NCBI GenBank assembly: GCA_041158765.1
Contig: JBEBAU010000018.1
Location: forward strand, 2,557-66,556
Source of the DNA: Candidatus Parcubacteria bacterium
GTDB taxonomy: Bacteria > Patescibacteriota > Minisyncoccia > Phycocordibacterales > PALSA-1337
Direction: 5' to 3'
DNA length: 64,000 nt
Part shown: positions 13,897-61,874 of the stretch, piece by piece
How the letters are laid out: the number at the start of each line of letters is the position of its first letter
How positions within the stretch are numbered: position 1 is the stretch's first letter
Program-made: the position numbers and the translations under genes
The notes under the pieces: model-generated
What the model saw: only the letters and a program-made list of their open reading frames with translations
Database searches by the model: none
Told to the model about the DNA's origin: nothing

Positions 13897-13925
13897 TTGA
13901 CTTTTTTTGTGCTTTCAGCTACTAT
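13897..13925 (+). promoter_or_regulatory. Sigma-70-like promoter TTGACT-17-TACTAT upstream of infA
   Basis: Seen in sequence; about 60 nt upstream of the infA ATG. Confidence 0.5.
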
Positions 13926-13984: not shown

Positions 13985-14203
13985 TTGGCAAAAATTTCCG
14001 CAAATAATCTCACATTTGGAGTAGTTACAGAAGCGTTGCCTGATACGCTTTTCCGAGTGAAGCTTGATGGAAAAGATGATGTGGTGCTTGCATATCTCGC
14101 TGGCAAGATGCGCATGCATCGGATCAAGGTGCTTATCGGCGATCGAGTAGAGTTGGCACTTGACCCATACGGGGGACGTGCACGCGTCACCAAACGTTTG
14201 TAG
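13985..14203 (+). CDS. infA: Translation initiation factor IF-1
   Basis: 72-aa S1-like protein; TLFRVKLDGKDDVVLAYLAGKMRMHRIKVLIGDRVELAL matches IF-1. Confidence 0.9.
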   Translation: MAKISANNLTFGVVTEALPDTLFRVKLDGKDDVVLAYLAGKMRMHRIKVLIGDRVELALDPYGGRARVTKRL

Positions 14204-14262: not shown

Positions 14263-14379
14263 ATGAAAGTAAAAGCATCAGTAAAAAAGATTTGTCCAAA
14301 GTGTAGCGTTGTTCGACGCAAGGGTTATGTATACATTATCTGCAAGGCAAATCCTCGCCACAAGCAGAGACAGGGCTAA
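14263..14379 (+). CDS. rpmJ: 50S ribosomal protein L36 (38 aa; below the ORF-track size cutoff)
   Basis: Translated by hand: [38 protein letters not shown], with the zinc-ribbon C-x2-C...C...H pattern of L36; lies between infA and rpsM as expected. Confidence 0.85.
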
Positions 14380-14412: not shown

Positions 14413-14793
14413 ATGCGTATCCTCGGTATCACAATTCCAGACGGCAAGCGACTCGAAATAGCTCTCACAGCTCTTTATGGTATTGGCCGATCTCGTGCAC
14501 TACATATTCTCAAGGAAGCACAGGTTGATGTTGCTATCAAAGCAAAGGATGTAACAGTTGATCAGGAGAATGCTATTCGTAAAGTTATCGAAACATTCAG
14601 AATCGAAGGAGATTTGAAGCGAGAAGTTGCTTCGAATATTAAGCGTCTCAAGGACATCAAGTCATTCCGTGGAAGCCGACACGCACGACGTCTCCCAGCT
14701 CGAGGGCAGCGTACCAAGACCAACTCCCGAACTGTACGAGGTAACGTCCGAAAGACTATGGGATCTGGACGAAAGAAGGAGGAGAAGAAATAA
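14413..14793 (+). CDS. rpsM: 30S ribosomal protein S13
   Basis: MRILGITIPDGKRLEIALTALYGIGRSRA... canonical S13. Confidence 0.9.
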   Translation: MRILGITIPDGKRLEIALTALYGIGRSRALHILKEAQVDVAIKAKDVTVDQENAIRKVIETFRIEGDLKREVASNIKRLKDIKSFRGSRHARRLPARGQRTKTNSRTVRGNVRKTMGSGRKKEEKK

Positions 14794-23244: not shown

Positions 23245-23988
23245 CTATTGACCCAAAAGACCATCAAGAGCGTTCTTGAGGGTTGCGTATGACTGTGCGC
23301 CGTTTACAGGGATTTGTTTGCCATTTGCTGTGATAATGACGCTATAAGGAGTGCCTGAAACCCCAGCATTAATTCCTTCGAGATAATCTGCATCAACCTC
23401 TGCCTTGTTTTTGCCGCTGCTTAGGCATGTTTTGAATTCTGTTTTGTCGAGACCGGCGTACACTGCGATTTCGGGAAGTTGCGCAGGGTTGAGTCCTTCT
23501 GGTGTAGCGTTGGTAACTGAAGGTGTTATTGAATAGAGGCGATTCGCATATGCCCAAAACTTGTCATTACCACCAAGATCAGCTGCACATTCCATAGCCT
23601 GTGCTTCGGTGCCAGCGTTCTTATGAAGAATATTGCCGTTCTCATCTGCTTGATCAAGAGGGAAATGACGATACACCCAAGCTACATTTCCAGTTTTGCC
23701 ATACTCAGTCATAACCTGAAGCATTGTTGCGTGGAATATTTTGCAGAATGGACATGAAGCATCAGAGTATTCAACAATCTTTATTTTTGCATTTGGATTA
23801 CCCAAAATATGGTCGTCGCTCGTCACGGCTCTTACTTCTTGAATCTGTGAAGGAATTTGCTGTGCAGTAACTGCTGCAGGGACAGGCTTTTTTGTCCAAA
23901 TAACCGCACCTGCGATAATTGCACCAGCAACAATAATAGCAACAGGAATTGTGATAACTGATTGAGGTTTTGGTTGATTTGGTTCCAT
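23245..23988 (-). CDS. DsbA-family thiol:disulfide oxidoreductase, membrane-anchored
   Basis: N-terminal TM anchor then a thioredoxin-like domain with active site SCPFCK (CPFC). Confidence 0.75.
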   Translation of the reverse strand: MEPNQPKPQSVITIPVAIIVAGAIIAGAVIWTKKPVPAAVTAQQIPSQIQEVRAVTSDDHILGNPNAKIKIVEYSDASCPFCKIFHATMLQVMTEYGKTGNVAWVYRHFPLDQADENGNILHKNAGTEAQAMECAADLGGNDKFWAYANRLYSITPSVTNATPEGLNPAQLPEIAVYAGLDKTEFKTCLSSGKNKAEVDADYLEGINAGVSGTPYSVIITANGKQIPVNGAQSYATLKNALDGLLGQ

Positions 23989-24776: not shown

Positions 24777-27700
24777 ATGAAAATGTACTATAAATTGGTG
24801 TTTTTTATTGCAGTTTTTATTTTTATTCCACTAAGTAGTGCATCAGCACAGACAGCAATTGGATCAGTTGTCACTGCTCCAAACTGGGGCTGTAGTTCTA
24901 CAGATACAGCACATCCATTTATTACTCGAACAGATATCATTTACGATGTATATAATACACCACAGTCATTTTATCCTCTGACACAGTCTTGTGTTTCAGG
25001 TACACTACTCGTCTCATATTCTGATGTCTTAGATATAACTCTATACTCCACAACTACCATGGAGATATCCTGCGTCGAAAGTGTTGGTGGAGTCTGGACA
25101 AAAGGTACTATCAAGATTACCGGACCAGGTACATTCAATAACGACAAAAACCCAATAGTCTGTCCAGGATCAATTTGGCAAGGGGGAATTTTTGCTAATT
25201 CATTTATTTTGAAATCAAATGCTGTTGCTGCAACATCAACCCTTGTTTCAGCAACCGCTGCTTCATCGACACTCACACTTACGGGTACCGGCTTTAGTCC
25301 TACAGGAAACACCGTGGTTGTAACATCTTCTGCTGGAGTTTCAGTTACTATTCCTAATGTCTCAAGTATTTCAAGCACTTCGATGGTTGTTACTTTGCCA
25401 TCGGGTTACACAATTGCAGATACATATACCGTAAAGGTTTTGCCATCTGGCGGATCTCTATATAGCAATACTACGAGTTTCACAATTAGGTCAGTAGACA
25501 TTGCTGTTATCACAGTTACAGGAGCAATGTTGAGCGGTGCAATATGTAATTGGGTAGATACCAATATTACTGGGCCAAATAAACTACAGAAGACACTTTG
25601 TATTGCGCCTTTCATGAAAAGCACAGCTAAAGTTGTGAAGCAGATAAAAGATGCTACAGATGCTGCTCTCGCCGCAAATAAAAAAGTGATGATTGTAAGT
25701 CAGTGTATCGGATCACTTATAGCGTATAACGTTATCGCTCAGTATTACAAAACATATGTTGATAAGGGTCTTGTTGAAATTGTATACGTTGATCCTCCAT
25801 ACGGTGGTTCATTCGCGAATGCACTTTTTAGCCGAGTTTTCCCGGGACAATATGCACCACGCGCACAAGCAATTGCTGGTGGTATCAAATATGACTCTCG
25901 AATGATTGATTGGACACGAGGAGAAGGACTTCTACATTTGTTTACACACGATGCTTTCACCTATCCAAATTACGGAAAGAATTCAACGAATCTTGCCGCT
26001 TTGAGTAATGTGATCCAAAAAAAGGTCACGACTCTAGCTTCAACTAGCCCAACACCATTTTCACCACAGGGTGGAATTATGATTGCAAGTGCACCAGTTG
26101 TTTCTGGCGTGAGCGTGGATGGTGTGAATAGCGAGTCAATTACAACTGATCAAGATATAACGGTGAATGCTACGGGTCTTCAGGGTGATGGAAACTATAT
26201 CTATATTCAGAATAATGAAAATCCGCAGATTTATTACACAATATACGGATTGCTTCCTGCAGGCGCTGGAGATTCGCTTATTTTCAATCTTCCTCTCAAA
26301 CCAGAGCTGGGCTTCGATGTAACGCCAGGTTCATACTCATTGTTTGTTGGTGCGCGTGATAGCGATTTGAGTAATAGTTTTACAATCAATATTGCTTCTC
26401 CAAGACTCGGTATACCACCATCTGTTACAGATCTTCCAATGAATATGAAATCTGGGGACATGGTAAGTATTCAGGGTAGCGGATTTCAGCCAGCAGGGAA
26501 TCAGGTGCGTTTTGTACTCGTACCAAATCCAACACAGAGCGCTAACGTAATTGATTTGTGGAATGTACTGATAGATTTCTTTTTGAAAATAAAAAATAAA
26601 TTACTTACACTTGTTTTTGCCCAGACAATTTCAGGTGAATCTCTAGTTGGTTTTGTTCCTGATTATATTATTAGAGACATTCCAAGTAACGGCACTTCAC
26701 TTTCATTCTCTCTTCCTTCAGATATTCCGAGCGGAACATATCTTGTCTCTGTTGCGGGACCTGATACTAATTGGACACCGGGCACAGCAACAGTTATTAC
26801 TAACACCCGAGCAGGTCAGTCGGTAATTTATCAAACATCAGACAGCGTTGCCGCTCAAACAATATACGGATGTTATATCGGATATTCATTTGATTCCGCT
26901 ACCAATCCAAACGCATCTAAGGGATATTCAACTAATGCTTCTGACCTTTGTTATTACCAATACGGCGGTAATAAAGCTTCACAGATTGTGGGATATTCAT
27001 GTCCAACAGGATATACACTCAATAATGAAACGAAGATGTGTCTTTCAACTCAATCAGGCCCAATTACTATCGGACCAGTTGTGAAGGCGTACACATGTCC
27101 TTCAGGACACGGTATTGTTACATCGAATATCTGTGCATATTTTCCAACCGGACTTTGGTCAACAGCAAAAGCAACATATACTTGCCCGATCGGATATAGC
27201 ATTACCGGTAGTACGTGTACGGTAAGTGTTCCAACAGGATTAACGGCGGTTTCAAAAAGTATTGGAACAGTAGATCTTTCATGGAAAAATGTGAAAACGC
27301 TCTACGCTGATTCTCTTGTTCTAGAGCGCGCTACTAATGTTGCTGGTCCATTCACAACGATTGCAACATTGAGCACTTCAAGCCTCAAATATTCTGATAA
27401 GAATCTTTCTTCACAAGAGAAGTATTCATATCGAGTTCGCATCCTTCGAACTGATGGTTCATATTCAAATCCAACAAATACCGTTACAGTATCAACCAAG
27501 GCTGTCTCTGTTCCAGTAATTACTCTCGCCACAAAAGCCGGCACTTCAACAATAGCTTTGAAATTGGCTGGAAAAGACGCCCTTCTCGGATTTAATTTGT
27601 TTGGTGGTTCTACTGGGGTGATGGATTTCATCATCGCAACAACCTCAAAGACATATACAGTTCGTGATCTTGCTCCATCAACTAAATACTGTTTCGTTGC

Positions 27701-28028
27701 ACAGGCAATATTCAATGAATTGAGTGTTTCAACCTCATCAAAGGCTCTCTGCGCCACGACTGCAGCAGTTGCAACACCGGTGAATACAACACCAGCTACA
27801 ACCGCTACACCGGCTGCAAATACCGCTGCACCAACTACTGTGTCAGCCTCAGTTGGCGGATATACATGTCCAACAAATTACACATATGTGTCTGCAAGTT
27901 CAGGAATGGGTAATTGTCTTGCAACAATATTCTTCTCAGGTCCAGCACCAACACCTCCAATACCAACACCGATATACACATGCCCAAGCGGATATGTATT
28001 AGGAACTGGTGGAGTCTGCAGCAAATAA
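24777..28028 (+). CDS. Large (1083-aa) secreted cell-surface protein with a signal peptide, IPT/TIG-like and fibronectin-III-like domains and five copies of a short Cys motif (YTCPxGY...C)
   Basis: Signal peptide MKMYYKLVFFIAVFIFIPLSSASA; FN3-like VPTGLTAVSKSIGTVDLSWKN...YSYRVRIL; repeats GYSCPTGYTLNNETKMC, YTCPSGHGIVTSNIC, YTCPIGYSITGSTC, YTCPTNYTYVSASSGMGNC, YTCPSGYVLGTGGVC. Confidence 0.6.
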   Translation: MKMYYKLVFFIAVFIFIPLSSASAQTAIGSVVTAPNWGCSSTDTAHPFITRTDIIYDVYNTPQSFYPLTQSCVSGTLLVSYSDVLDITLYSTTTMEISCVESVGGVWTKGTIKITGPGTFNNDKNPIVCPGSIWQGGIFANSFILKSNAVAATSTLVSATAASSTLTLTGTGFSPTGNTVVVTSSAGVSVTIPNVSSISSTSMVVTLPSGYTIADTYTVKVLPSGGSLYSNTTSFTIRSVDIAVITVTGAMLSGAICNWVDTNITGPNKLQKTLCIAPFMKSTAKVVKQIKDATDAALAANKKVMIVSQCIGSLIAYNVIAQYYKTYVDKGLVEIVYVDPPYGGSFANALFSRVFPGQYAPRAQAIAGGIKYDSRMIDWTRGEGLLHLFTHDAFTYPNYGKNSTNLAALSNVIQKKVTTLASTSPTPFSPQGGIMIASAPVVSGVSVDGVNSESITTDQDITVNATGLQGDGNYIYIQNNENPQIYYTIYGLLPAGAGDSLIFNLPLKPELGFDVTPGSYSLFVGARDSDLSNSFTINIASPRLGIPPSVTDLPMNMKSGDMVSIQGSGFQPAGNQVRFVLVPNPTQSANVIDLWNVLIDFFLKIKNKLLTLVFAQTISGESLVGFVPDYIIRDIPSNGTSLSFSLPSDIPSGTYLVSVAGPDTNWTPGTATVITNTRAGQSVIYQTSDSVAAQTIYGCYIGYSFDSATNPNASKGYSTNASDLCYYQYGGNKASQIVGYSCPTGYTLNNETKMCLSTQSGPITIGPVVKAYTCPSGHGIVTSNICAYFPTGLWSTAKATYTCPIGYSITGSTCTVSVPTGLTAVSKSIGTVDLSWKNVKTLYADSLVLERATNVAGPFTTIATLSTSSLKYSDKNLSSQEKYSYRVRILRTDGSYSNPTNTVTVSTKAVSVPVITLATKAGTSTIALKLAGKDALLGFNLFGGSTGVMDFIIATTSKTYTVRDLAPSTKYCFVAQAIFNELSVSTSSKALCATTAAVATPVNTTPATTATPAANTAAPTTVSASVGGYTCPTNYTYVSASSGMGNCLATIFFSGPAPTPPIPTPIYTCPSGYVLGTGGVCSK

Positions 28029-44824: not shown

Positions 44825-45058
44825 ATGCTATATTCAGTATCAATGAAGAGTAAAAAACTCCGTTTTGATGTCTTTTTTGAAAGTGGCTGGTATACAGCGT
44901 CATGTCTCGATGCGTTTATTGTTACGCAAGGGAAGACTTTCAAAGTGCTTGAGATGAATATTCGCGAGGCAGTTGAGTTGCATTTTGCTGATGAAATCAA
45001 AAAGAAGCTATTCAATCCAGTTATTTCCTTGAAGTACGTTTTGTCCGCGAATGCCTAA
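44825..45058 (+). CDS. hicB: HicB-family antitoxin (UPF0150 fold)
   Basis: FESGWYTASCLDAFIVTQGKTFKVLEMNIREAVELHF resembles the HicB/UPF0150 core; overlaps the downstream hicA by 8 nt. Confidence 0.55.
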   Translation: MLYSVSMKSKKLRFDVFFESGWYTASCLDAFIVTQGKTFKVLEMNIREAVELHFADEIKKKLFNPVISLKYVLSANA

Positions 45059-45281
45059 ATTAAAAGTCTTGTCGTCAAAGGACATTACAAAAATGTTCAG
45101 TGATTTTGGATTTGAGCACATTAATACAAAAGGAAGTCATATACACATGAGATACAGAGGTATATTAGCCACAATTCCTCTAAGTGCAGAGATACCAAAA
45201 GGCACACTCAAGGCAATATATAGACAGGCTGCAATTGTAATTCCAAAAGCTGAACTTGATGCAATGTTTTATACAAAATAG
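45051..45281 (+). CDS. hicA: HicA-family mRNA interferase toxin (YcfA-like)
   Basis: LKVLSSKDITKMFSDFGFEHINTKGSHIHMRY...IPLSAEIPKGTLKAIYRQAAI matches the HicA signature (GSH...G, GTL..I..QAG-like). Confidence 0.6.
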   Translation: MPKLKVLSSKDITKMFSDFGFEHINTKGSHIHMRYRGILATIPLSAEIPKGTLKAIYRQAAIVIPKAELDAMFYTK

Positions 45282-45345: not shown

Positions 45346-47532
45346 ATGGCTGCTGAAAAAGAATCCAAAAAGAAAGACGATTACGGTGCTGATAGTATTC
45401 AGGTGCTCGAAGGGCTTGAACCGGTACGCAAGCGTCCCGGAATGTATATCGGTACGACTGGTCCAGACGGTCTTCACCATTTGATTTGGGAAATTTTTGA
45501 TAACTCTCGCGACGAAGCGATGGGTGGTTTTGCTAATGATATCGAAGTAGCTATTCTTCCAGGTAATCGTATTCGTGTAGTTGATAACGGTCGAGGTATT
45601 CCCGTTGATATTCACAAGAAGACCAAGGTCTCAGCACTTGAAATGGTTATGACCGTTCTCCATGCCGGAGGCAAATTCGGCGGTGAGGATAGCGGTTACA
45701 AGGTCTCAGGAGGTCTTCACGGAGTGGGTGCATCCGTTGTGAATGCACTTTCAGTCTATACACAAGTTCTTGTTCACAAAGAGGGTGGACTCTATATGCA
45801 GGAATATGAGCAAGGTAAGCGCCGTGCTCAAGTGAAGAAGATCGCTTCAACAAAAGCTCACGGAACCATTGTGACATTCGAGCCAGATCCTATTATTTTC
45901 AAAGAGGGTGTTATCTTCGATTTCAATCGTGTGGTCAATCATATGCGCCAGCAAGCATATCTTGTACGCGGTCTACGTATTGGTGTTATTGATGCGCGTG
46001 AAGCAAAAGAGGGGGTTTTCAGCAAACCAAACAAAGACGGTCGTGTAGATCTCGATACTGACATTTATTATCTTCGTGATCTTGGACTCAATGTTCCTTC
46101 ACATACGTTTTATTTTGAAGGTGGTCTCGCTTCACTTGTGAAATTCAACAATCAGATTCTCAAGCCTATTCACAAAAACATTTTCTATATTGAAAAGAAA
46201 GTAGAGGGTGTTGAATCTGTCGAAGTAGCACTTCAGTACGCAGATGATATTTCATCTCGTATTCTTGGATTTGCAAACAATATCTATAACCCAGAAGGAG
46301 GAACACATATTACCGGTTTCAAGACAGCACTCACTCGAACACTCAATTCATACGCCAAGAAGAATAATCTTGCTAAGGACGGTGAAGACAATTTCACTGG
46401 AGATGATGTTCTAGAAGGTCTCACTGCTGTTGTCTCTGTGAAGCTTCGTGAAATTCAATTCGAAGGTCAGACGAAGGCAAAGCTCGGTTCAGTCGAGGCA
46501 CAGTCTGCTGTTGCTACGGTTTTTGGAGAAGCATTCTCGGCTTTCCTAGAAGAGAATCCAGATGATGCCAAAGCAATGATTAGCAAGGTTATCCTTGCAA
46601 TGAAAGCACGCAAGGCAGCAAAAGCCGCAAAGGACTCAGTGCTTCGCAAGGGCGCACTTGAAGGCATGACACTTCCTGGTAAGCTTGCTGACTGTCAATC
46701 AAATGACGCTTCTGAATCAGAACTCTTCATTGTGGAGGGAGACTCTGCGGGAGGTACTGCAAAGACCGGTCGTGATCGACGAATTCAAGCGATCTTGCCG
46801 CTTCGAGGCAAAATTCTCAACATCGAACGTGCTCGACTTGATCGAATGCTCGGTTCTGAACAGATTAAGAATCTCGTGCTCGCATTCGGTACTGCAATTG
46901 GAGACACATTTGATATTAGTAAGCTCCGATATCACAAAATTATTCTAGCAACAGATGCCGACGTTGACGGAGCTCACATTCGCACATTGATTCTTACGCT
47001 TTTGTACCGATATTTCAAACCGCTTATTGAAGGAGGGTATGTATACATTGCTCAACCACCACTTTATAAGGTGAAGCGAGGCAAAGAGCTCCTCTATTAT
47101 TATTCTGAAGAAGAGAAGGTGAAAGCCCTCGGAAAGGAGATTGATAGCCTAAATGATATTTCAGGTATAGATGAAAGCGCAGTTGCGTACGATGATTCAC
47201 GCGAGCGCCTCCTCGATCGTGCTGGTGCCGACACTACTGTGGAGGCGCTCGACGGCGCTTCTGACACACTCTTTGGTGATGCGGCGACCGATGCGAAGGG
47301 TAAGAAGGGCAGCGGTAAGATTTCAATTCAACGATACAAGGGTCTCGGAGAAATGAATGCTGATGAGCTCTGGGAAACAACCATGGATCCAGAACGTCGC
47401 ATCCTTCGCCAAGTTACAATTGAAGATGCTCAGGATGCGGATAAGGTTTTTGATATGCTCATGGGAACTGACGTTCCTGCCCGCAAAATGTTCATCCAAT
47501 CTAATGCCAAGAAGGCATCTATTGATATCTAA
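45346..47532 (+). CDS. gyrB: DNA gyrase subunit B
   Basis: GHKL ATPase (EGLEPVRKRPGMYIGTT, HAGGKFGG), transducer and Toprim (LFIVEGDSAGG) domains and a GyrB C-terminus. Confidence 0.9.
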   Translation: MAAEKESKKKDDYGADSIQVLEGLEPVRKRPGMYIGTTGPDGLHHLIWEIFDNSRDEAMGGFANDIEVAILPGNRIRVVDNGRGIPVDIHKKTKVSALEMVMTVLHAGGKFGGEDSGYKVSGGLHGVGASVVNALSVYTQVLVHKEGGLYMQEYEQGKRRAQVKKIASTKAHGTIVTFEPDPIIFKEGVIFDFNRVVNHMRQQAYLVRGLRIGVIDAREAKEGVFSKPNKDGRVDLDTDIYYLRDLGLNVPSHTFYFEGGLASLVKFNNQILKPIHKNIFYIEKKVEGVESVEVALQYADDISSRILGFANNIYNPEGGTHITGFKTALTRTLNSYAKKNNLAKDGEDNFTGDDVLEGLTAVVSVKLREIQFEGQTKAKLGSVEAQSAVATVFGEAFSAFLEENPDDAKAMISKVILAMKARKAAKAAKDSVLRKGALEGMTLPGKLADCQSNDASESELFIVEGDSAGGTAKTGRDRRIQAILPLRGKILNIERARLDRMLGSEQIKNLVLAFGTAIGDTFDISKLRYHKIILATDADVDGAHIRTLILTLLYRYFKPLIEGGYVYIAQPPLYKVKRGKELLYYYSEEEKVKALGKEIDSLNDISGIDESAVAYDDSRERLLDRAGADTTVEALDGASDTLFGDAATDAKGKKGSGKISIQRYKGLGEMNADELWETTMDPERRILRQVTIEDAQDADKVFDMLMGTDVPARKMFIQSNAKKASIDI

Positions 47533-47565: not shown

Positions 47566-47600
47566 GTATTTACGGCTCTATTGAGCCGTATTTGCATAAA
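47566..47600 (+). terminator. Terminator hairpin acggctc tatt gagccgt + tttgcataaaaaa; 16-nt core repeated in inverted orientation at 61906-61921
   Basis: Seen in sequence after gyrB. Confidence 0.45.
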
Positions 47601-47645: not shown

Positions 47646-47674
47646 TTGACTTTTTCCGAGATATGATATACAAT
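47646..47674 (+). promoter_or_regulatory. Near-consensus sigma-70 promoter TTGACT-17-TACAAT
   Basis: Seen in sequence 27 nt upstream of ATG 47701. Confidence 0.55.
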
Positions 47675-47700
47675 GGTCCCATACTATTTATTCAAAAAAC

Positions 47701-49134
47701 ATGCATTATTCAACCACAAAAACCAATATCGTGAAGTACCTTGCGGTGGCCGCTTTTGTGGCTATAGCAGGTTTCTCTCTATTTTCACCAGCAAAAGCTC
47801 AAGCGGGATTTGATCCTGTTCAGCTTATTGACCCATTCTGTCTTTGGAGTGGTTGTGGTGATGAACCTACTAAGGTAGTTAAGAAAACTATCATCAATAG
47901 TAACGTTAATAGCCCAGGTGGCGTAGTTACTGGTAACACAGCAGTTACTGGCGGACATACAACTACCGGTACTCCAGTAGTTGTTACTACTACTCCAGTT
48001 TATACCTATAACTATCCTTCAACTTCATATACAAGTCCGCTTAATGCTACTTGTTATGCATCTCCTACGTCTGTGTATGTTGGCGGTACTTCTGTGTGGA
48101 GCGTTTCTGCTTACGGAGGTAACGGCGCATATTACTATAGCTGGTCAGGTACTGACGGTCTTTCAGGAAATGGTCGAAGCATATACATGACCTACAATAA
48201 TACTGGTACCAAAAATGCGACAGTCACTGTCACATCAGGTAATCAGACTATTTCAATTAACTGTAATGCTTCTGTAATCGTATATGATAATGGAAATAAT
48301 TATAACTATAACAATGGCTATAATTACAACTATAATTCTAACTATTACAATAACGGTTATTACAATACTCCGCTTACCGTTTCATGTGTTGCGAATACTT
48401 CATTCGCTCCAGTTGGACGACTCGTTCAGTGGACTGCGACAGCTTCTGGTGGTTATAACACCAATAGCTATGCTGGTAACTATTCGTATCGATGGACTGG
48501 TACTGACGGTATCAACGGCAGCGGTCAAACTCTCGGCGTAAACTACGGCGGTCCTGGTACTAAGTACGCTTCAGTTACTGTATACATGGGCGGACAATCA
48601 GTTACTCAGAATTGTTCAGGAAGCGTTACTGTTGGTATCGAAAATAACCAGAACTACAACAACTACAATAATGGAAATCTCGAAATCGCATGTTTTGCTG
48701 ATGCAGATCGTGTACGTATCGGAACTCCAGTAACTTGGGGCGTTGAAGCAACTGGTGGAAACGGATCAAACTATGCATATTCATGGACAGGTTCTGAAGG
48801 TCTCTCTGGTTCTCAGCGTTCAGCTGTGACCACATACAGTACTGCTGGCATCAAGAATGCTACAGTTACAGTGACTTCAGGTGGTGTTTCAGCATCAAAG
48901 CTCTGTGGTAATGCTGTAACCGTTGTTACTGCTCCACGAGCGAATACCACAACTACAAATGGTAATCAGAATACCAATGCAACATCAAGTGATAATAGCT
49001 CACTCACAGGTTCAGCCTTCTTCTCACTTTCAAATGTTCCTTGGGGCTGGGTTGCTATCCTCACCATTCTCGTTCTTCTCGCAATGGTTGTATACCTCAT
49101 CGTTACTCGAAACGAACCAGTTATCAAAGCATAA
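47701..49134 (+). CDS. Cell-surface protein with a signal peptide, three tandem ~95-aa repeats separated by Asn/Tyr-rich low-complexity linkers, and a C-terminal TM anchor
   Basis: Repeats share C.A.P.SV.VGG...W.V.A.GG...Y.YSW.GTDG..G.G......Y...G.K.ATVTVTSG......C; linkers NGNNYNYNNGYNYNYNSNYYNNGYYN and NNQNYNNYNNGN; C-terminal WVAILTILVLLAMVVYLIV. Confidence 0.55.
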   Translation: MHYSTTKTNIVKYLAVAAFVAIAGFSLFSPAKAQAGFDPVQLIDPFCLWSGCGDEPTKVVKKTIINSNVNSPGGVVTGNTAVTGGHTTTGTPVVVTTTPVYTYNYPSTSYTSPLNATCYASPTSVYVGGTSVWSVSAYGGNGAYYYSWSGTDGLSGNGRSIYMTYNNTGTKNATVTVTSGNQTISINCNASVIVYDNGNNYNYNNGYNYNYNSNYYNNGYYNTPLTVSCVANTSFAPVGRLVQWTATASGGYNTNSYAGNYSYRWTGTDGINGSGQTLGVNYGGPGTKYASVTVYMGGQSVTQNCSGSVTVGIENNQNYNNYNNGNLEIACFADADRVRIGTPVTWGVEATGGNGSNYAYSWTGSEGLSGSQRSAVTTYSTAGIKNATVTVTSGGVSASKLCGNAVTVVTAPRANTTTTNGNQNTNATSSDNSSLTGSAFFSLSNVPWGWVAILTILVLLAMVVYLIVTRNEPVIKA

Positions 49135-49167
49135 TTGAAATATACGGCACCTATTGCCGAATATGAA

Positions 49168-49198
49168 AACAAAAACCGTCCCTATATGGGGCGGTTTT
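49168..49198 (+). terminator. Intrinsic terminator (aaaccgtccc tatat ggggcggttttt)
   Basis: Stem with one G-U pair followed by TTTTT. Confidence 0.6.
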
Positions 49199-49230
49199 TG
49201 TTATACTAGACATATAGATACGATTTATTC

Positions 49231-49971
49231 ATGAAAGAATTATTGCAACAATCAGAAGCGGGCAAGCTACATCACGCATATTGTCTCTTGCATTCAGGGG
49301 ATGCAATAGGAATGTGTGAAAGACTCACGGCTTTTTTTGTGGAGGGTCTCGGTGTTGCTGTCGTTGCAAATCCTGATTTTCACCATATTGAAGTTGATTC
49401 ATTTTCAATTGATGATAGTAGAAAGGTGAAAATGATTCATACGTCGAAGCCAATGACTGAAGATGGCAAGAAGATCTTTTTGATACAAGCAAATGGGATT
49501 ACGAATGAAGCTCAAAATGCTTTGCTCAAAATCTTCGAAGAACCGCAGGAACACATTCATTTTTTTGTTGTTGTTCCTGCGGGCACACTCCTGTTGCCGA
49601 CATTACGTTCGAGAATGATGGTTATTGAGGGCGGTGATGCGGAGGAAGTCGCTGGGGTTAGTGGCGTCGGTGGCGCTGGTCGAGCTGCTGGGGTTAATGG
49701 CGCCACCGAAGCAACAGCATTTTTGGAAATGCCAATCAAACAACGTATTGCTTTTGTTGATGATATTGCAGCGAGAGTAAGTGATGAAAAATCAGTAAAA
49801 CAAGACGCTGTGAACTTCCTGAATGGACTTGAAAGGGCTCTTGCGAAGCGCGATATACGCTCACAAAAAACTCGCACAGCACTCGACGCGGTAGTGCGCG
49901 CGCGAGAATACGCGCGCGATAGATCACCGTCATTGAAGCAGCTCCTTGAATATGTTGCTCTCTCAGTATAA
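49231..49971 (+). CDS. holB: DNA polymerase III delta-prime (HolB-like) clamp-loader subunit with a Gly/Ala-rich insertion
   Basis: HAYCLLHSGD, ALLKIFEEPQEHIHFFVVVP, LPTLRSRMMVI motifs of clamp-loader delta-prime; GC-rich insertion GGDAEEVAGVSGVGGAGRAAGVNGATEA. Confidence 0.6.
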   Translation: MKELLQQSEAGKLHHAYCLLHSGDAIGMCERLTAFFVEGLGVAVVANPDFHHIEVDSFSIDDSRKVKMIHTSKPMTEDGKKIFLIQANGITNEAQNALLKIFEEPQEHIHFFVVVPAGTLLLPTLRSRMMVIEGGDAEEVAGVSGVGGAGRAAGVNGATEATAFLEMPIKQRIAFVDDIAARVSDEKSVKQDAVNFLNGLERALAKRDIRSQKTRTALDAVVRAREYARDRSPSLKQLLEYVALSV

Positions 49972-60459: not shown

Positions 60460-60630
60460 TCTATTAGGTCAGCAAACGGCATTATATACAGAGAAGTCCA
60501 TAATACAGGGCTTATTGCCTATTTTGTTGACTTTTTATTGAAAATATGTTAGTTTAATTGCATGGCTTTTCATGCAAAAAGGCTGAAAAAGTGAGTAATT
60601 TCAAGCTGAAATTGACTCAAAATCGACAAT

Positions 60631-60668: not shown

Positions 60669-61874
60669 ATGAAAAAAATCCGAATCGCACTCATTGGGTG
60701 CGCCGGCCACTTTGGCCGTATCTGGCTCCGCAACCTCTTCACTCTGCAGGGTTACCTGGGCTGCGAGCTGGTTGTCTGCTGTGACGGCAACGTTGCAGCA
60801 TTCGATGAACTCCGTGGAATGTATCCCAGCGTGAAGTTCATGTCGTCTGAACAGTATGATCTCGTGCTTGGCATGTGTGATGCTGTTGTGATTGCGACGC
60901 CTCCGGCGACGCATTTCAAACTTGCAATGAAAGCATTGCAAGCACACAAAGACGTGCTGGTTGAAAAACCACTTGCTTATAGCCCGTCTGAGTGCGAACT
61001 CCTCACGGAATTTGCTGAGAAGCAAGGTTGCATTGTGATGTCCGGTCTGACGTATCTGTATTCTGCAGCATTTCATGCTATCAAGAATATTATTGATACG
61101 AATCAAATAGGCAAAGTCATCCATATTGATTCTCGGCGTGAAAGCTTCGGCCGATACAGTGGTGATAACCATGTCACGCAAGACCTGGGACCTCATGATC
61201 TTTCCATGATTCTCGCGGTTATGGGGGAAATGCCACTTGCGGTCAGCTGCACTGGTCATCAGGACCAGCTTACGGGTCACTACGTTCGCACGAACACGCA
61301 CCTCACCTTCAGTGGCGGTCGAAGTGCGAGCATTATCAGTAGCTGGATTTCAGCCAACATTAAGGTTCGCAAAACCGAGTTCTTTGGAGAAATTGGTGTT
61401 ACGACGTTTGATGATTCACGTGCCAACAACAACGGCAAAGTTGTGTTGCATTCTGGGTTGCGTGTGACGAAAGCGTCACCGAATACTGCACCAGGTGGAC
61501 ATCCCTTCGTGTATCACGCCGGTGCGGCTGAGAAGATGATCGAAGTGGCGGGCGGAGAAAATATTACGAACGAAGCGCGTCACTTTGTCGATTGTATTAA
61601 ACATCGGGAAGTCCCGATATCGGCAGGGGAAGCTGGTGTTGATGTGGCACACATTTTGTTTGCCGCAGAACAATCGCTCGAAATGCATAAGACAATTGGT
61701 CTGCCTCCCGGTATCGCTGGTCGGCACATTGATACGCGTCACCGGAAGCTCGGTCAGCGAACTTCTGCACCTGTGCCTACGTCGCCGGCAGCAGTGCCTG
61801 CCGTGGGACACATTGCAGTCACCAGCAGCGGTGAGCACGACGTGCTCAATGTTCCGGTGAAGGTGCTTCGTTAA
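60669..61874 (+). CDS. Gfo/Idh/MocA-family NAD(P)-dependent oxidoreductase with a Pro/Ala-rich C-terminal tail; GC-rich (about 55%), probably horizontally acquired
   Basis: Rossmann IALIGCAGHFG and EKP motif (VLVEKPLAYS); GC and codon usage clearly differ from neighbours; long antisense ORFs on the minus strand are GC artefacts. Confidence 0.7.
   Translation: MKKIRIALIGCAGHFGRIWLRNLFTLQGYLGCELVVCCDGNVAAFDELRGMYPSVKFMSSEQYDLVLGMCDAVVIATPPATHFKLAMKALQAHKDVLVEKPLAYSPSECELLTEFAEKQGCIVMSGLTYLYSAAFHAIKNIIDTNQIGKVIHIDSRRESFGRYSGDNHVTQDLGPHDLSMILAVMGEMPLAVSCTGHQDQLTGHYVRTNTHLTFSGGRSASIISSWISANIKVRKTEFFGEIGVTTFDDSRANNNGKVVLHSGLRVTKASPNTAPGGHPFVYHAGAAEKMIEVAGGENITNEARHFVDCIKHREVPISAGEAGVDVAHILFAAEQSLEMHKTIGLPPGIAGRHIDTRHRKLGQRTSAPVPTSPAAVPAVGHIAVTSSGEHDVLNVPVKVLR

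Follow-up and report, generated by a model that had tools for sequence, protein, structure and literature searches.

A predicted membrane-anchored PKD-repeat envelope protein encoded downstream of gyrB in a Candidatus Parcubacteria bacterium

The 64,000-nucleotide stretch of Candidatus Parcubacteria DNA analysed here (the window) contains, at positions 47701–49134 of the forward strand, a coding sequence for a 477-residue protein that is identical to the NCBI entry 'MAG: hypothetical protein RIT04_288 [Candidatus Parcubacteria bacterium]' (MAG, metagenome-assembled genome). The protein contains three divergent PKD-type immunoglobulin (Ig)-like domains, which are separated by disordered tyrosine-rich spacers and are followed by a highly conserved C-terminal anchor segment. 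With a probability of about 0.55, the protein is read as an abundant and constitutively produced structural stalk or scaffold of the cell envelope that is anchored in the membrane with a type I topology.

The composition of the protein is dominated by Thr, Gly, Asn, Ser, Val, Ala and Tyr. Read from the sequence, residues 1–35 (47701–47805; all features of the gene lie on the + strand) form a putative signal peptide with the n/h/c layout of Sec substrates and an AxA site (A33-Q34-A35, AQA/G). The P30 and A35 residues show at least 90% conservation among 102 homologs, and residues 10–27 of this region adopt an α-helix in an AlphaFold2 model. The following segment (residues 36–56; 47806–47868; FDPVQLIDPFCLWSGCGDEP) is an N-terminal tip motif with two Cys residues and the family consensus DPxCLxxC. 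The three-domain subfamily has this motif, and several members with one or two domains lack it. A Thr/Val/Asn-rich spacer (residues 57–110; 47869–48030) that includes the NSNVNSPG motif (family consensus NSNxNSPG) is disordered, with a predicted local distance difference test (pLDDT) score below 50. Three PKD-like domains occupy residues 111–197 (48031–48291; Cys118...Cys188), 222–314 (48364–48642; Cys229...Cys305) and 324–411 (48670–48933; Cys331...Cys402). The Asn/Tyr-rich linker 1 (residues 196–222; 48286–48366; DNGNNYNYNNGYNYNYNSNYYNNGYYN; pLDDT below 50) connects the first two domains, and linker 2 (residues 315–325; 48643–48675; NNQNYNNYNNG) connects the last two. The domains are followed by a membrane-proximal stalk that is rich in Thr, Asn and Ser (residues 412–435; 48934–49005), with low pLDDT values at residues 421–440. 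The C-terminal anchor (residues 436–477; 49006–49134; complete segment SAFFSLSNVPWGWVAILTILVLLAMVVYLIVTRNEPVIKA) consists of SAFFSLSNVPWGW, the hydrophobic helix VAILTILVLLAMVVYLIV and the tail TRNEPVIKA, which is followed by the stop codon; the helix is placed at residues 448–470 in the model.

This anatomy agrees with the layout that the original prediction had proposed from the DNA alone. The signal peptide is supported by its n/h/c layout, AxA site and P30/A35 conservation, and the C-terminal transmembrane anchor by its modelled helix and by its position in the most conserved region of the family. The three homologous repeats are ∼87–93 residues long and 40–47% identical to one another in pairwise comparisons, with 25 invariant columns that include one Cys pair per repeat, and the two Asn/Tyr-rich linkers lie where the repeats are joined. 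Two other classes of exported protein were rejected. A lipoprotein was dismissed because the sequence lacks a lipobox and its Cys residues come after the AxA site, and a type IV pilin was dismissed because a class III signal is absent.

In the AlphaFold2 model of the whole protein, which was built from a 102-sequence alignment, three β-sandwich domains are formed with block-mean pLDDT values mostly between 83 and 97; the value dips to 64 at an insertion in domain 2 and falls below 50 in the linkers and spacers. Structure prediction of the repeat unit, a check that the original prediction had recommended, yielded a β-sandwich domain with a pLDDT of 94.7. The domain comprises ∼80–90 residues and superimposes on solved PKD domains. 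A WDFGDG-like signature is found in all three repeats (YSWSGTDG, YRWTGTDG and YSWTGSEG), and the domain profile aligns the YxWxG(T/S)DG motif with the YDWDFGDG sequence of the collagenase 4jrw; the PKD domains of ColG and ColH are matched weakly (E ∼0.01). The PKD_4 model (PF18911) scores 18.8 bits on the window protein (E 0.0017), and its gathering threshold of 27 bits is not reached. The same model matches 94 of the 102 family members at E ≤ 0.01, with 1e-14 as the best value; PF00801 matches 31. Judged by hidden Markov models (HMMs), PKD membership is thus clear for the family and marginal for the window sequence alone. Pfam and NCBIfam gave nothing for the window protein besides the weak PKD_4 match, and the whole-protein profile found no match among PDB sequences. 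Because profile matches to PDB sequences are weak or absent, the PKD classification rests on the fold comparison together with the Pfam matches of the homologs, by which the repeats are divergent PKD-type Ig-like domains.

All six domain Cys residues are invariant, and the Cys–Cys span is fixed at 69–70 residues (standard deviation ≤ 1.5 in 102 homologs). A DsbA-like thioredoxin with a membrane anchor is encoded elsewhere in the window (23245–23988, − strand; Thioredoxin_4, E 4e-23; DSBA, E 4e-18), and the organism is probably able to form extracytoplasmic disulfides. Since the Cys pairs are invariant, their span is fixed and a DsbA-like thioredoxin is encoded, one disulfide per domain can reasonably be inferred.

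Of the more than 515 homologs that were scored, every named one derives from Parcubacteria, Taylorbacteria or Patescibacteria; the nearest are 56–59% identical to the window protein. Mean pairwise identity is highest in the C-terminal segment (0.69), followed by the domains (∼0.50) and the linkers (0.16–0.22), and amounts to only 0.16 in the stalk. Across the family, the anchor has a constant layout of LFSLxNVPWGW, a hydrophobic helix and NRxKI. A scan with back-translated NVPWGWVA against one genome per species (185,579 species) gave 55 matches. Forty-nine are located in Patescibacteria MAGs, one per genome, and the six in other phyla represent chance (∼9 expected by our own estimate). At the Patescibacteria loci with enough sequence, the open reading frame (ORF) always encodes a PKD-domain protein with one to three copies. 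An exhaustive search of 1.84 billion representatives with an anchor-profile HMM returned 157 clusters, which were always matched at the C-terminal end. Among the 106 full-length cluster members, 104 contain one to four family-type PKD domains; two domains are commonest, and three are the form of the present subfamily. A word-indexed search with the 43-residue anchor profile was uninformative, as it returned five short fragments only and missed known members. The near-constant association of the anchor with the PKD family (104/106) makes it a family-specific element and not a general sorting tag. The 64-kb window holds one anchor carrier only. The uncharacterised family appears to be vertically inherited and confined to Patescibacteria of the Paceibacteria/Taylorbacteria type, and no description of it was found in the literature.

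Two homologous loci depart from the common arrangement. At locus L003 (5407–6927), a tandem paralog of 506 residues with an identical anchor sequence lies between gyrB and the orthologous gene, so a single copy per genome is not a strict rule for the family. At locus L025, a 469-residue ORF has a ∼190-residue non-PKD domain after the signal peptide, followed by a pair of PKD domains and the family anchor.

The gene is preceded by a σ70-type promoter (47646–47674) that consists of the −35 hexamer TTGACT (47646–47651), a 17-nt spacer and the −10 hexamer TACAAT (47669–47674), with 26 nt between the end of the −10 hexamer and the ATG. The presence of this element just before the start codon, as reported in the original prediction, was confirmed. 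Its ranking as the best promoter in the window does not strictly hold: its score against the σ70 consensus is 10/12, and the whole window contains 19 sites of at least 10/12, of which ∼7 are correctly placed before genes and one (1312–1283, − strand) scores 11/12. A strong promoter is nevertheless plausible through conservation in homologs. Promoter-like sites number 33 in the 16 kb around the gene, with 33.0 expected by chance, and a single match is therefore not significant alone. Credibility comes from the homologs. When the best σ70 match in the 125 nt before the start was taken, 35 of 41 homolog loci reached at least 10/12, the 17-nt spacer was present in 32 of these 35, and the sequence was nearly always TTGACT...TAnAAT. 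Among 161 control genes at the same loci that have an intergenic region upstream, only 13% reached this score. Moreover, conservation reaches past the hexamers (ccTTGACTttt...tagtaTAnAAT). The extended form TTGACTTTT-N14-TAnnnT has only two other occurrences in the window. One (13897–13925) lies directly before infA (13985–14203), rpmJ (14263–14379) and rpsM (14413–14793), and the other (60527–60555) precedes a GFO/IDH/MocA oxidoreductase gene at 60669. That the infA-rpmJ-rpsM operon has this promoter form too makes high expression plausible. High constitutive transcription can fairly be inferred from these upstream sequences, and the gene is probably strongly expressed.

The leader between promoter and start codon is short and A/U-rich and lacks a Shine–Dalgarno sequence, which is normal for this genome, as a Shine–Dalgarno-like motif precedes only 4 of 57 window ORFs. 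Downstream of the gene, an intrinsic terminator (49168–49202; AACAAAAACCGUCCC-UAUAU-GGGGCGGUUUUUGUU) forms a 15-bp stem between an A-tract and a U-tract and is possibly bidirectional. The surrounding region (49135–49215) folds with a free energy of −32.8 kcal/mol (z −6.9), and none of 200 shuffled sequences folds equally well. With its own promoter and its own terminator, the gene looks monocistronic, and the locus looks like a self-contained transcription unit. In many window ORFs, the ATG lies 6–10 nt after the end of a TAnnnT −10-like box, in front of which TG is often found (for example, at the starts at 2988, 6559, 9251, 11210 and 42015), which suggests that leaderless or near-leaderless mRNAs may be common in the genome.

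Family members that are unlinked to gyrB have longer leaders, with 56–101 nt between the −10 hexamer and the ATG. These leaders contain a conserved stem-loop (uAUGGCUy-loop-rAGCCAUa) that is located ∼36–40 nt after the −10 hexamer and is found at loci L013, L017, L022, L034, L036, L044, L046, L047, L050, L054 and others. In 23 distinct sequences, for which pairs were counted by hand on an aligned 20-nt block, the seven positions of the stem are 74–87% paired, with compensatory AU<->GC and UA<->CG changes. No Rfam family matches the leader hairpin, and RNAalifold found no consensus structure in a gappy alignment of the 5′ untranslated regions (UTRs). A related stem-loop is present in the window in the spacer between gyrB and the gene (47571–47590, + strand; UACGGCUC-UAUU-GAGCCGUA; −13.1 kcal/mol). 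It sits just after gyrB, 55 nt upstream of the −35 hexamer, and is identical at 16 of 20 positions to the UTR hairpin of L034, as counted on the aligned block. The motif YGGCTY-N4-RAGCCR occurs once in the 64-kb window, with 0.04 occurrences expected. Given where it lies, the window hairpin may act as a weak terminator of gyrB, be the relic of a leader or belong to a longer transcript.

In the favoured structural reading, the protein would be exported by the Sec pathway as a type I membrane protein, and its signal peptide would be removed after Ala35. The C-terminal helix would reside in the cytoplasmic membrane, the aromatic belt of the NVPWGW motif would lie at the interface, and the short basic tail would point into the cytoplasm. 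From the membrane outward, the ectodomain would be composed of the Thr/Asn-rich stalk, the three PKD beads, the disordered spacer and the distal Cys-loop tip. The three rigid beads, each clamped by one disulfide, would be separated by the two disordered Tyr/Asn-rich spacers in a beads-on-a-string arrangement. Such a stalk or scaffold could extend from the membrane either through the wall or over it, and the Tyr-rich spacers would provide reach as well as sticky aromatic contacts to wall glycans or neighbouring copies. The variation of the domain number from one to four across lineages fits an element of tuned length.

Several observations weigh against this structural reading. S-layer (surface-layer) proteins usually lack Cys residues and carry S-layer homology (SLH) or other known anchoring modules, and no S-layer or SLH anchoring domain was found in the window protein with Pfam and NCBIfam. 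The tip motif is missing in many one- and two-domain members and therefore does not appear to be a universal functional site. Protein abundance is deduced from the quality and conservation of the promoter, and a structural and an adhesive role look inseparable by sequence. The population evidence from three samples described below is biased, as the look-up that produced it finds identical proteins only. A more far-reaching version of the structural reading is speculative and, taken as a whole, unlikely. It would make the family the major envelope protein of a Paceibacteria clade, forming an S-layer-like coat of membrane-anchored PKD stalks in which the Tyr-rich spacers, conserved in composition, either hold on to wall glycans or link adjacent molecules through aromatic or dityrosine contacts, with expression set by the conserved promoter and, in most lineages, by a conserved and previously undescribed 5′-leader stem-loop that stabilises or regulates the mRNA.

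The original prediction had instead proposed a highly expressed, variable surface antigen or adhesin with simple-sequence-like linker DNA that is prone to length variation. In mechanistic terms, this would be a contingency locus whose linkers change by slipped-strand mispairing. The strong promoter, the spread of linker-containing intervals between species and the periodicity of linker 1 suit this model, which is highly improbable in view of the following results. In linker 1, TRF detected imperfect periodicities only (period 6/12/24/36 nt, 66–86% matches), no perfect tandem repeat anywhere in the gene exceeds 12 nt (2 × 6), and synonymous codons are interleaved (AAT/AAC 8/5, TAT/TAC 6/3), so the linker DNA is not a microsatellite. 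The Cys-to-Cys intervals that hold the linkers range from 26 to 55 and from 20 to 46 residues across the family, with the first measuring 40 residues in the window protein. This first interval is 26% Tyr family-wide, and the Tyr residues alternate with Asn, Asp or Pro by lineage (YN, YD or YP). The retention of a Tyr-rich composition with varying partner residues argues for selection on composition and not for slippage. Proteins with 84–91% identical domains differ by only 0–4 residues in linker length, and four have identical lengths; the change in linker length tracks overall, species-level divergence, as gradual drift would. Orthologous domains are more alike (identity 0.50–0.53) than paralogous ones (0.38–0.45), and sharing a protein does not raise the similarity of paralogous domains above that seen between species. 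It follows that the triplication is ancient and that the repeats do not recombine, with no sign of concerted evolution among the three. The single match per genome in the motif scan and the housekeeping neighbourhood of the gene also speak against the model.

Evidence from populations points in the same direction within its limits. An identical protein was found in three further independent samples, with DNA that is collinear with the window over 3.3–3.4 kb. Compared with the window, these samples contain one to four single-nucleotide polymorphisms (SNPs), all in gyrB, and the gene itself has no SNP and no indel; because the samples were retrieved by exact-protein look-up, the comparison shows the stability of this allele and not the absence of others. 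All five SNP positions fall within 124 nt of gyrB (46851–46974), and none lies in the surface-protein gene or in the downstream holB-like gene. Two metagenome scans for near relatives, one seeded with low-complexity peptides and the other with an exact 24-mer from domain 2, found none. Nothing in these sequences indicates a phase-variable or antigenically variable locus.

A host-attachment adhesin, in which the Ig-like stalk would present the Cys-loop tip or the PKD faces to the host cell of a presumed episymbiont, is possible though doubtful. A signal peptide, Ig-like repeats, flexible spacers and a membrane anchor make up the architecture of many adhesins, the structural neighbours of the model include intimin, invasin and Ig-CAMs, and a domain number of one to four between lineages could tune reach. 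Surface proteins of the Candidate Phyla Radiation (CPR) with PKD and related domains have, moreover, commonly been proposed to act in host contact (PMC8080830; PMC13059738), which favours such a role here. The distribution of conservation fits an adhesin less well, as the best-conserved part is the membrane anchor and not the distal binding part, and the tip motif is absent in many members. In addition, the motif scan gave one match per genome, the gene lies among housekeeping genes, no diversification within the population was seen, and Pfam and NCBIfam reveal no recognisable ligand-binding domain. The same anchor raises a further alternative, namely that the C-terminus is a new sorting signal, which a dedicated enzyme would cleave so as to link the protein to the wall or a lipid. 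Its tripartite build at the very end of the protein (SLxNVPWGW, a hydrophobic helix of ∼20 residues and NRxKI) recalls LPXTG and PEP-CTERM signals, and it is the most conserved segment (pairwise identity 0.69) and always C-terminal. Known sorting signals, however, mark many unrelated substrates, whereas this segment occurs once per genome in 49 Patescibacteria genomes and on the same PKD-type family in 104 of 106 carriers. No NCBIfam sorting-signal model matches at E values up to 10, no LPXTG, PEP or GG motif precedes the helix, and no sortase, exosortase or rhombosortase-like gene is found among the conserved neighbours in the up to 7 kb covered on either side. Cleavage at a sorting signal is accordingly improbable.

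The gene is flanked by gyrB upstream (45346–47532) and by a DNA polymerase III delta′-like gene (holB-like; 49231–49971) downstream, both confirmed by Pfam. The gyrB gene was immediately upstream in all of the first four homolog loci inspected. In a wider set, it was found in this position in only 4 of the 20 loci whose upstream sequence extended over 2.5 kb or more, and a fifth locus, L031, shows the gyrB 3′ end only. At the remaining loci, the neighbours resemble hisS, rnhB and a PD-(D/E)XK nuclease, among others, as read from the sequence without a Pfam run. Since the linkage holds in only 4 of 20 loci, it was dropped as a functional clue and attributed to shared ancestry of the gene order, and no conserved functional partner gene was found among the neighbours at the homolog loci (up to 7 kb on each side). 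The gene looks like a vertically inherited member of a housekeeping neighbourhood. An origin from mobile or foreign DNA was rejected on the basis of its G+C content (42.4%, compared with 42.7% for the window).

Two other features of the window were recorded. A small two-gene cassette between pheT and gyrB (44825–45281, + strand) encodes a HicA toxin as its second gene (Pfam E 1e-11); its first gene encodes a 77-residue protein without a Pfam match and occupies the position expected for a HicB antitoxin. The cassette is absent from homologous loci L001–L004. A second large exported protein of 1083 residues, with an N-terminal signal-like sequence, is encoded at 24777–28028 (+ strand), and its fibronectin-III-like match is below threshold (19.8 bits, with a cut-off of 21).

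The formation mechanism and structure of the cell envelope have been stated to be unclear for all CPR bacteria studied (PMC5220378). The protein described here is a candidate major surface component of these ultra-small cells on account of its single match per genome, its clade restriction, its conservation across species and its ribosomal-operon-like promoter form. As a target for antibodies or tags, it could be put to use in imaging, in the sorting of cells and in studies of host contact. For annotation, 'hypothetical protein' can be replaced by 'type-I-anchored PKD-repeat envelope protein', and a family-specific C-terminal anchor motif is defined.

Comparison with known systems places the protein among repeat Ig-like surface proteins, and no new principle or mechanism is demonstrated. 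In a Foldseek search with the whole model, the top matches were phage Hoc and the Ig-CAM ectodomains of NCAM and ICAM (TM-scores of 0.13–0.20, identity ∼10%). The likeness consists of a generic string of three to four Ig-like domains only and is no sign of common descent or shared function. The closest relationship is to bacterial and archaeal PKD domains (PF18911/PF00801), such as those of ColG, ColH and the Methanosarcina mazei surface-layer protein (PDB 1L0Q), which share the Y-x-W-x-G-(T/S)-(D/E)-G signature, an extracellular location and tandem arrays. The window protein differs from them in its very divergent sequence and in the invariant Cys pair 69–70 residues apart, and its domains sit alone on a membrane anchor without an enzyme or β-propeller.

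Archaeal S-layer glycoproteins of the Halobacterium/Haloferax type are anchored by a C-terminal transmembrane segment, next to which lies a Thr-rich stalk. The window protein resembles them in its predicted type I topology, Thr/Asn/Ser-rich stalk, β-rich ectodomain and presumed very high expression. It has no shown homology to them, however, and is much smaller, contains conserved Cys residues and comes from a bacterium with peptidoglycan. In Gram-positive MSCRAMM/Sdr-Clf adhesins, stalks are built from Ser-Asp dipeptide repeats. Unlike these adhesins, the window protein lacks LPXTG/sortase anchoring and a ligand-binding A domain, and its spacers are located between the domains and not beside a wall anchor, with spacer DNA that is not a perfect repeat. 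The two systems nonetheless share Ig-like domains that are combined with dipeptide-like spacers (YN, YD or YP in the present family), whose length depends on the lineage and which are plausible as stalks that give reach.

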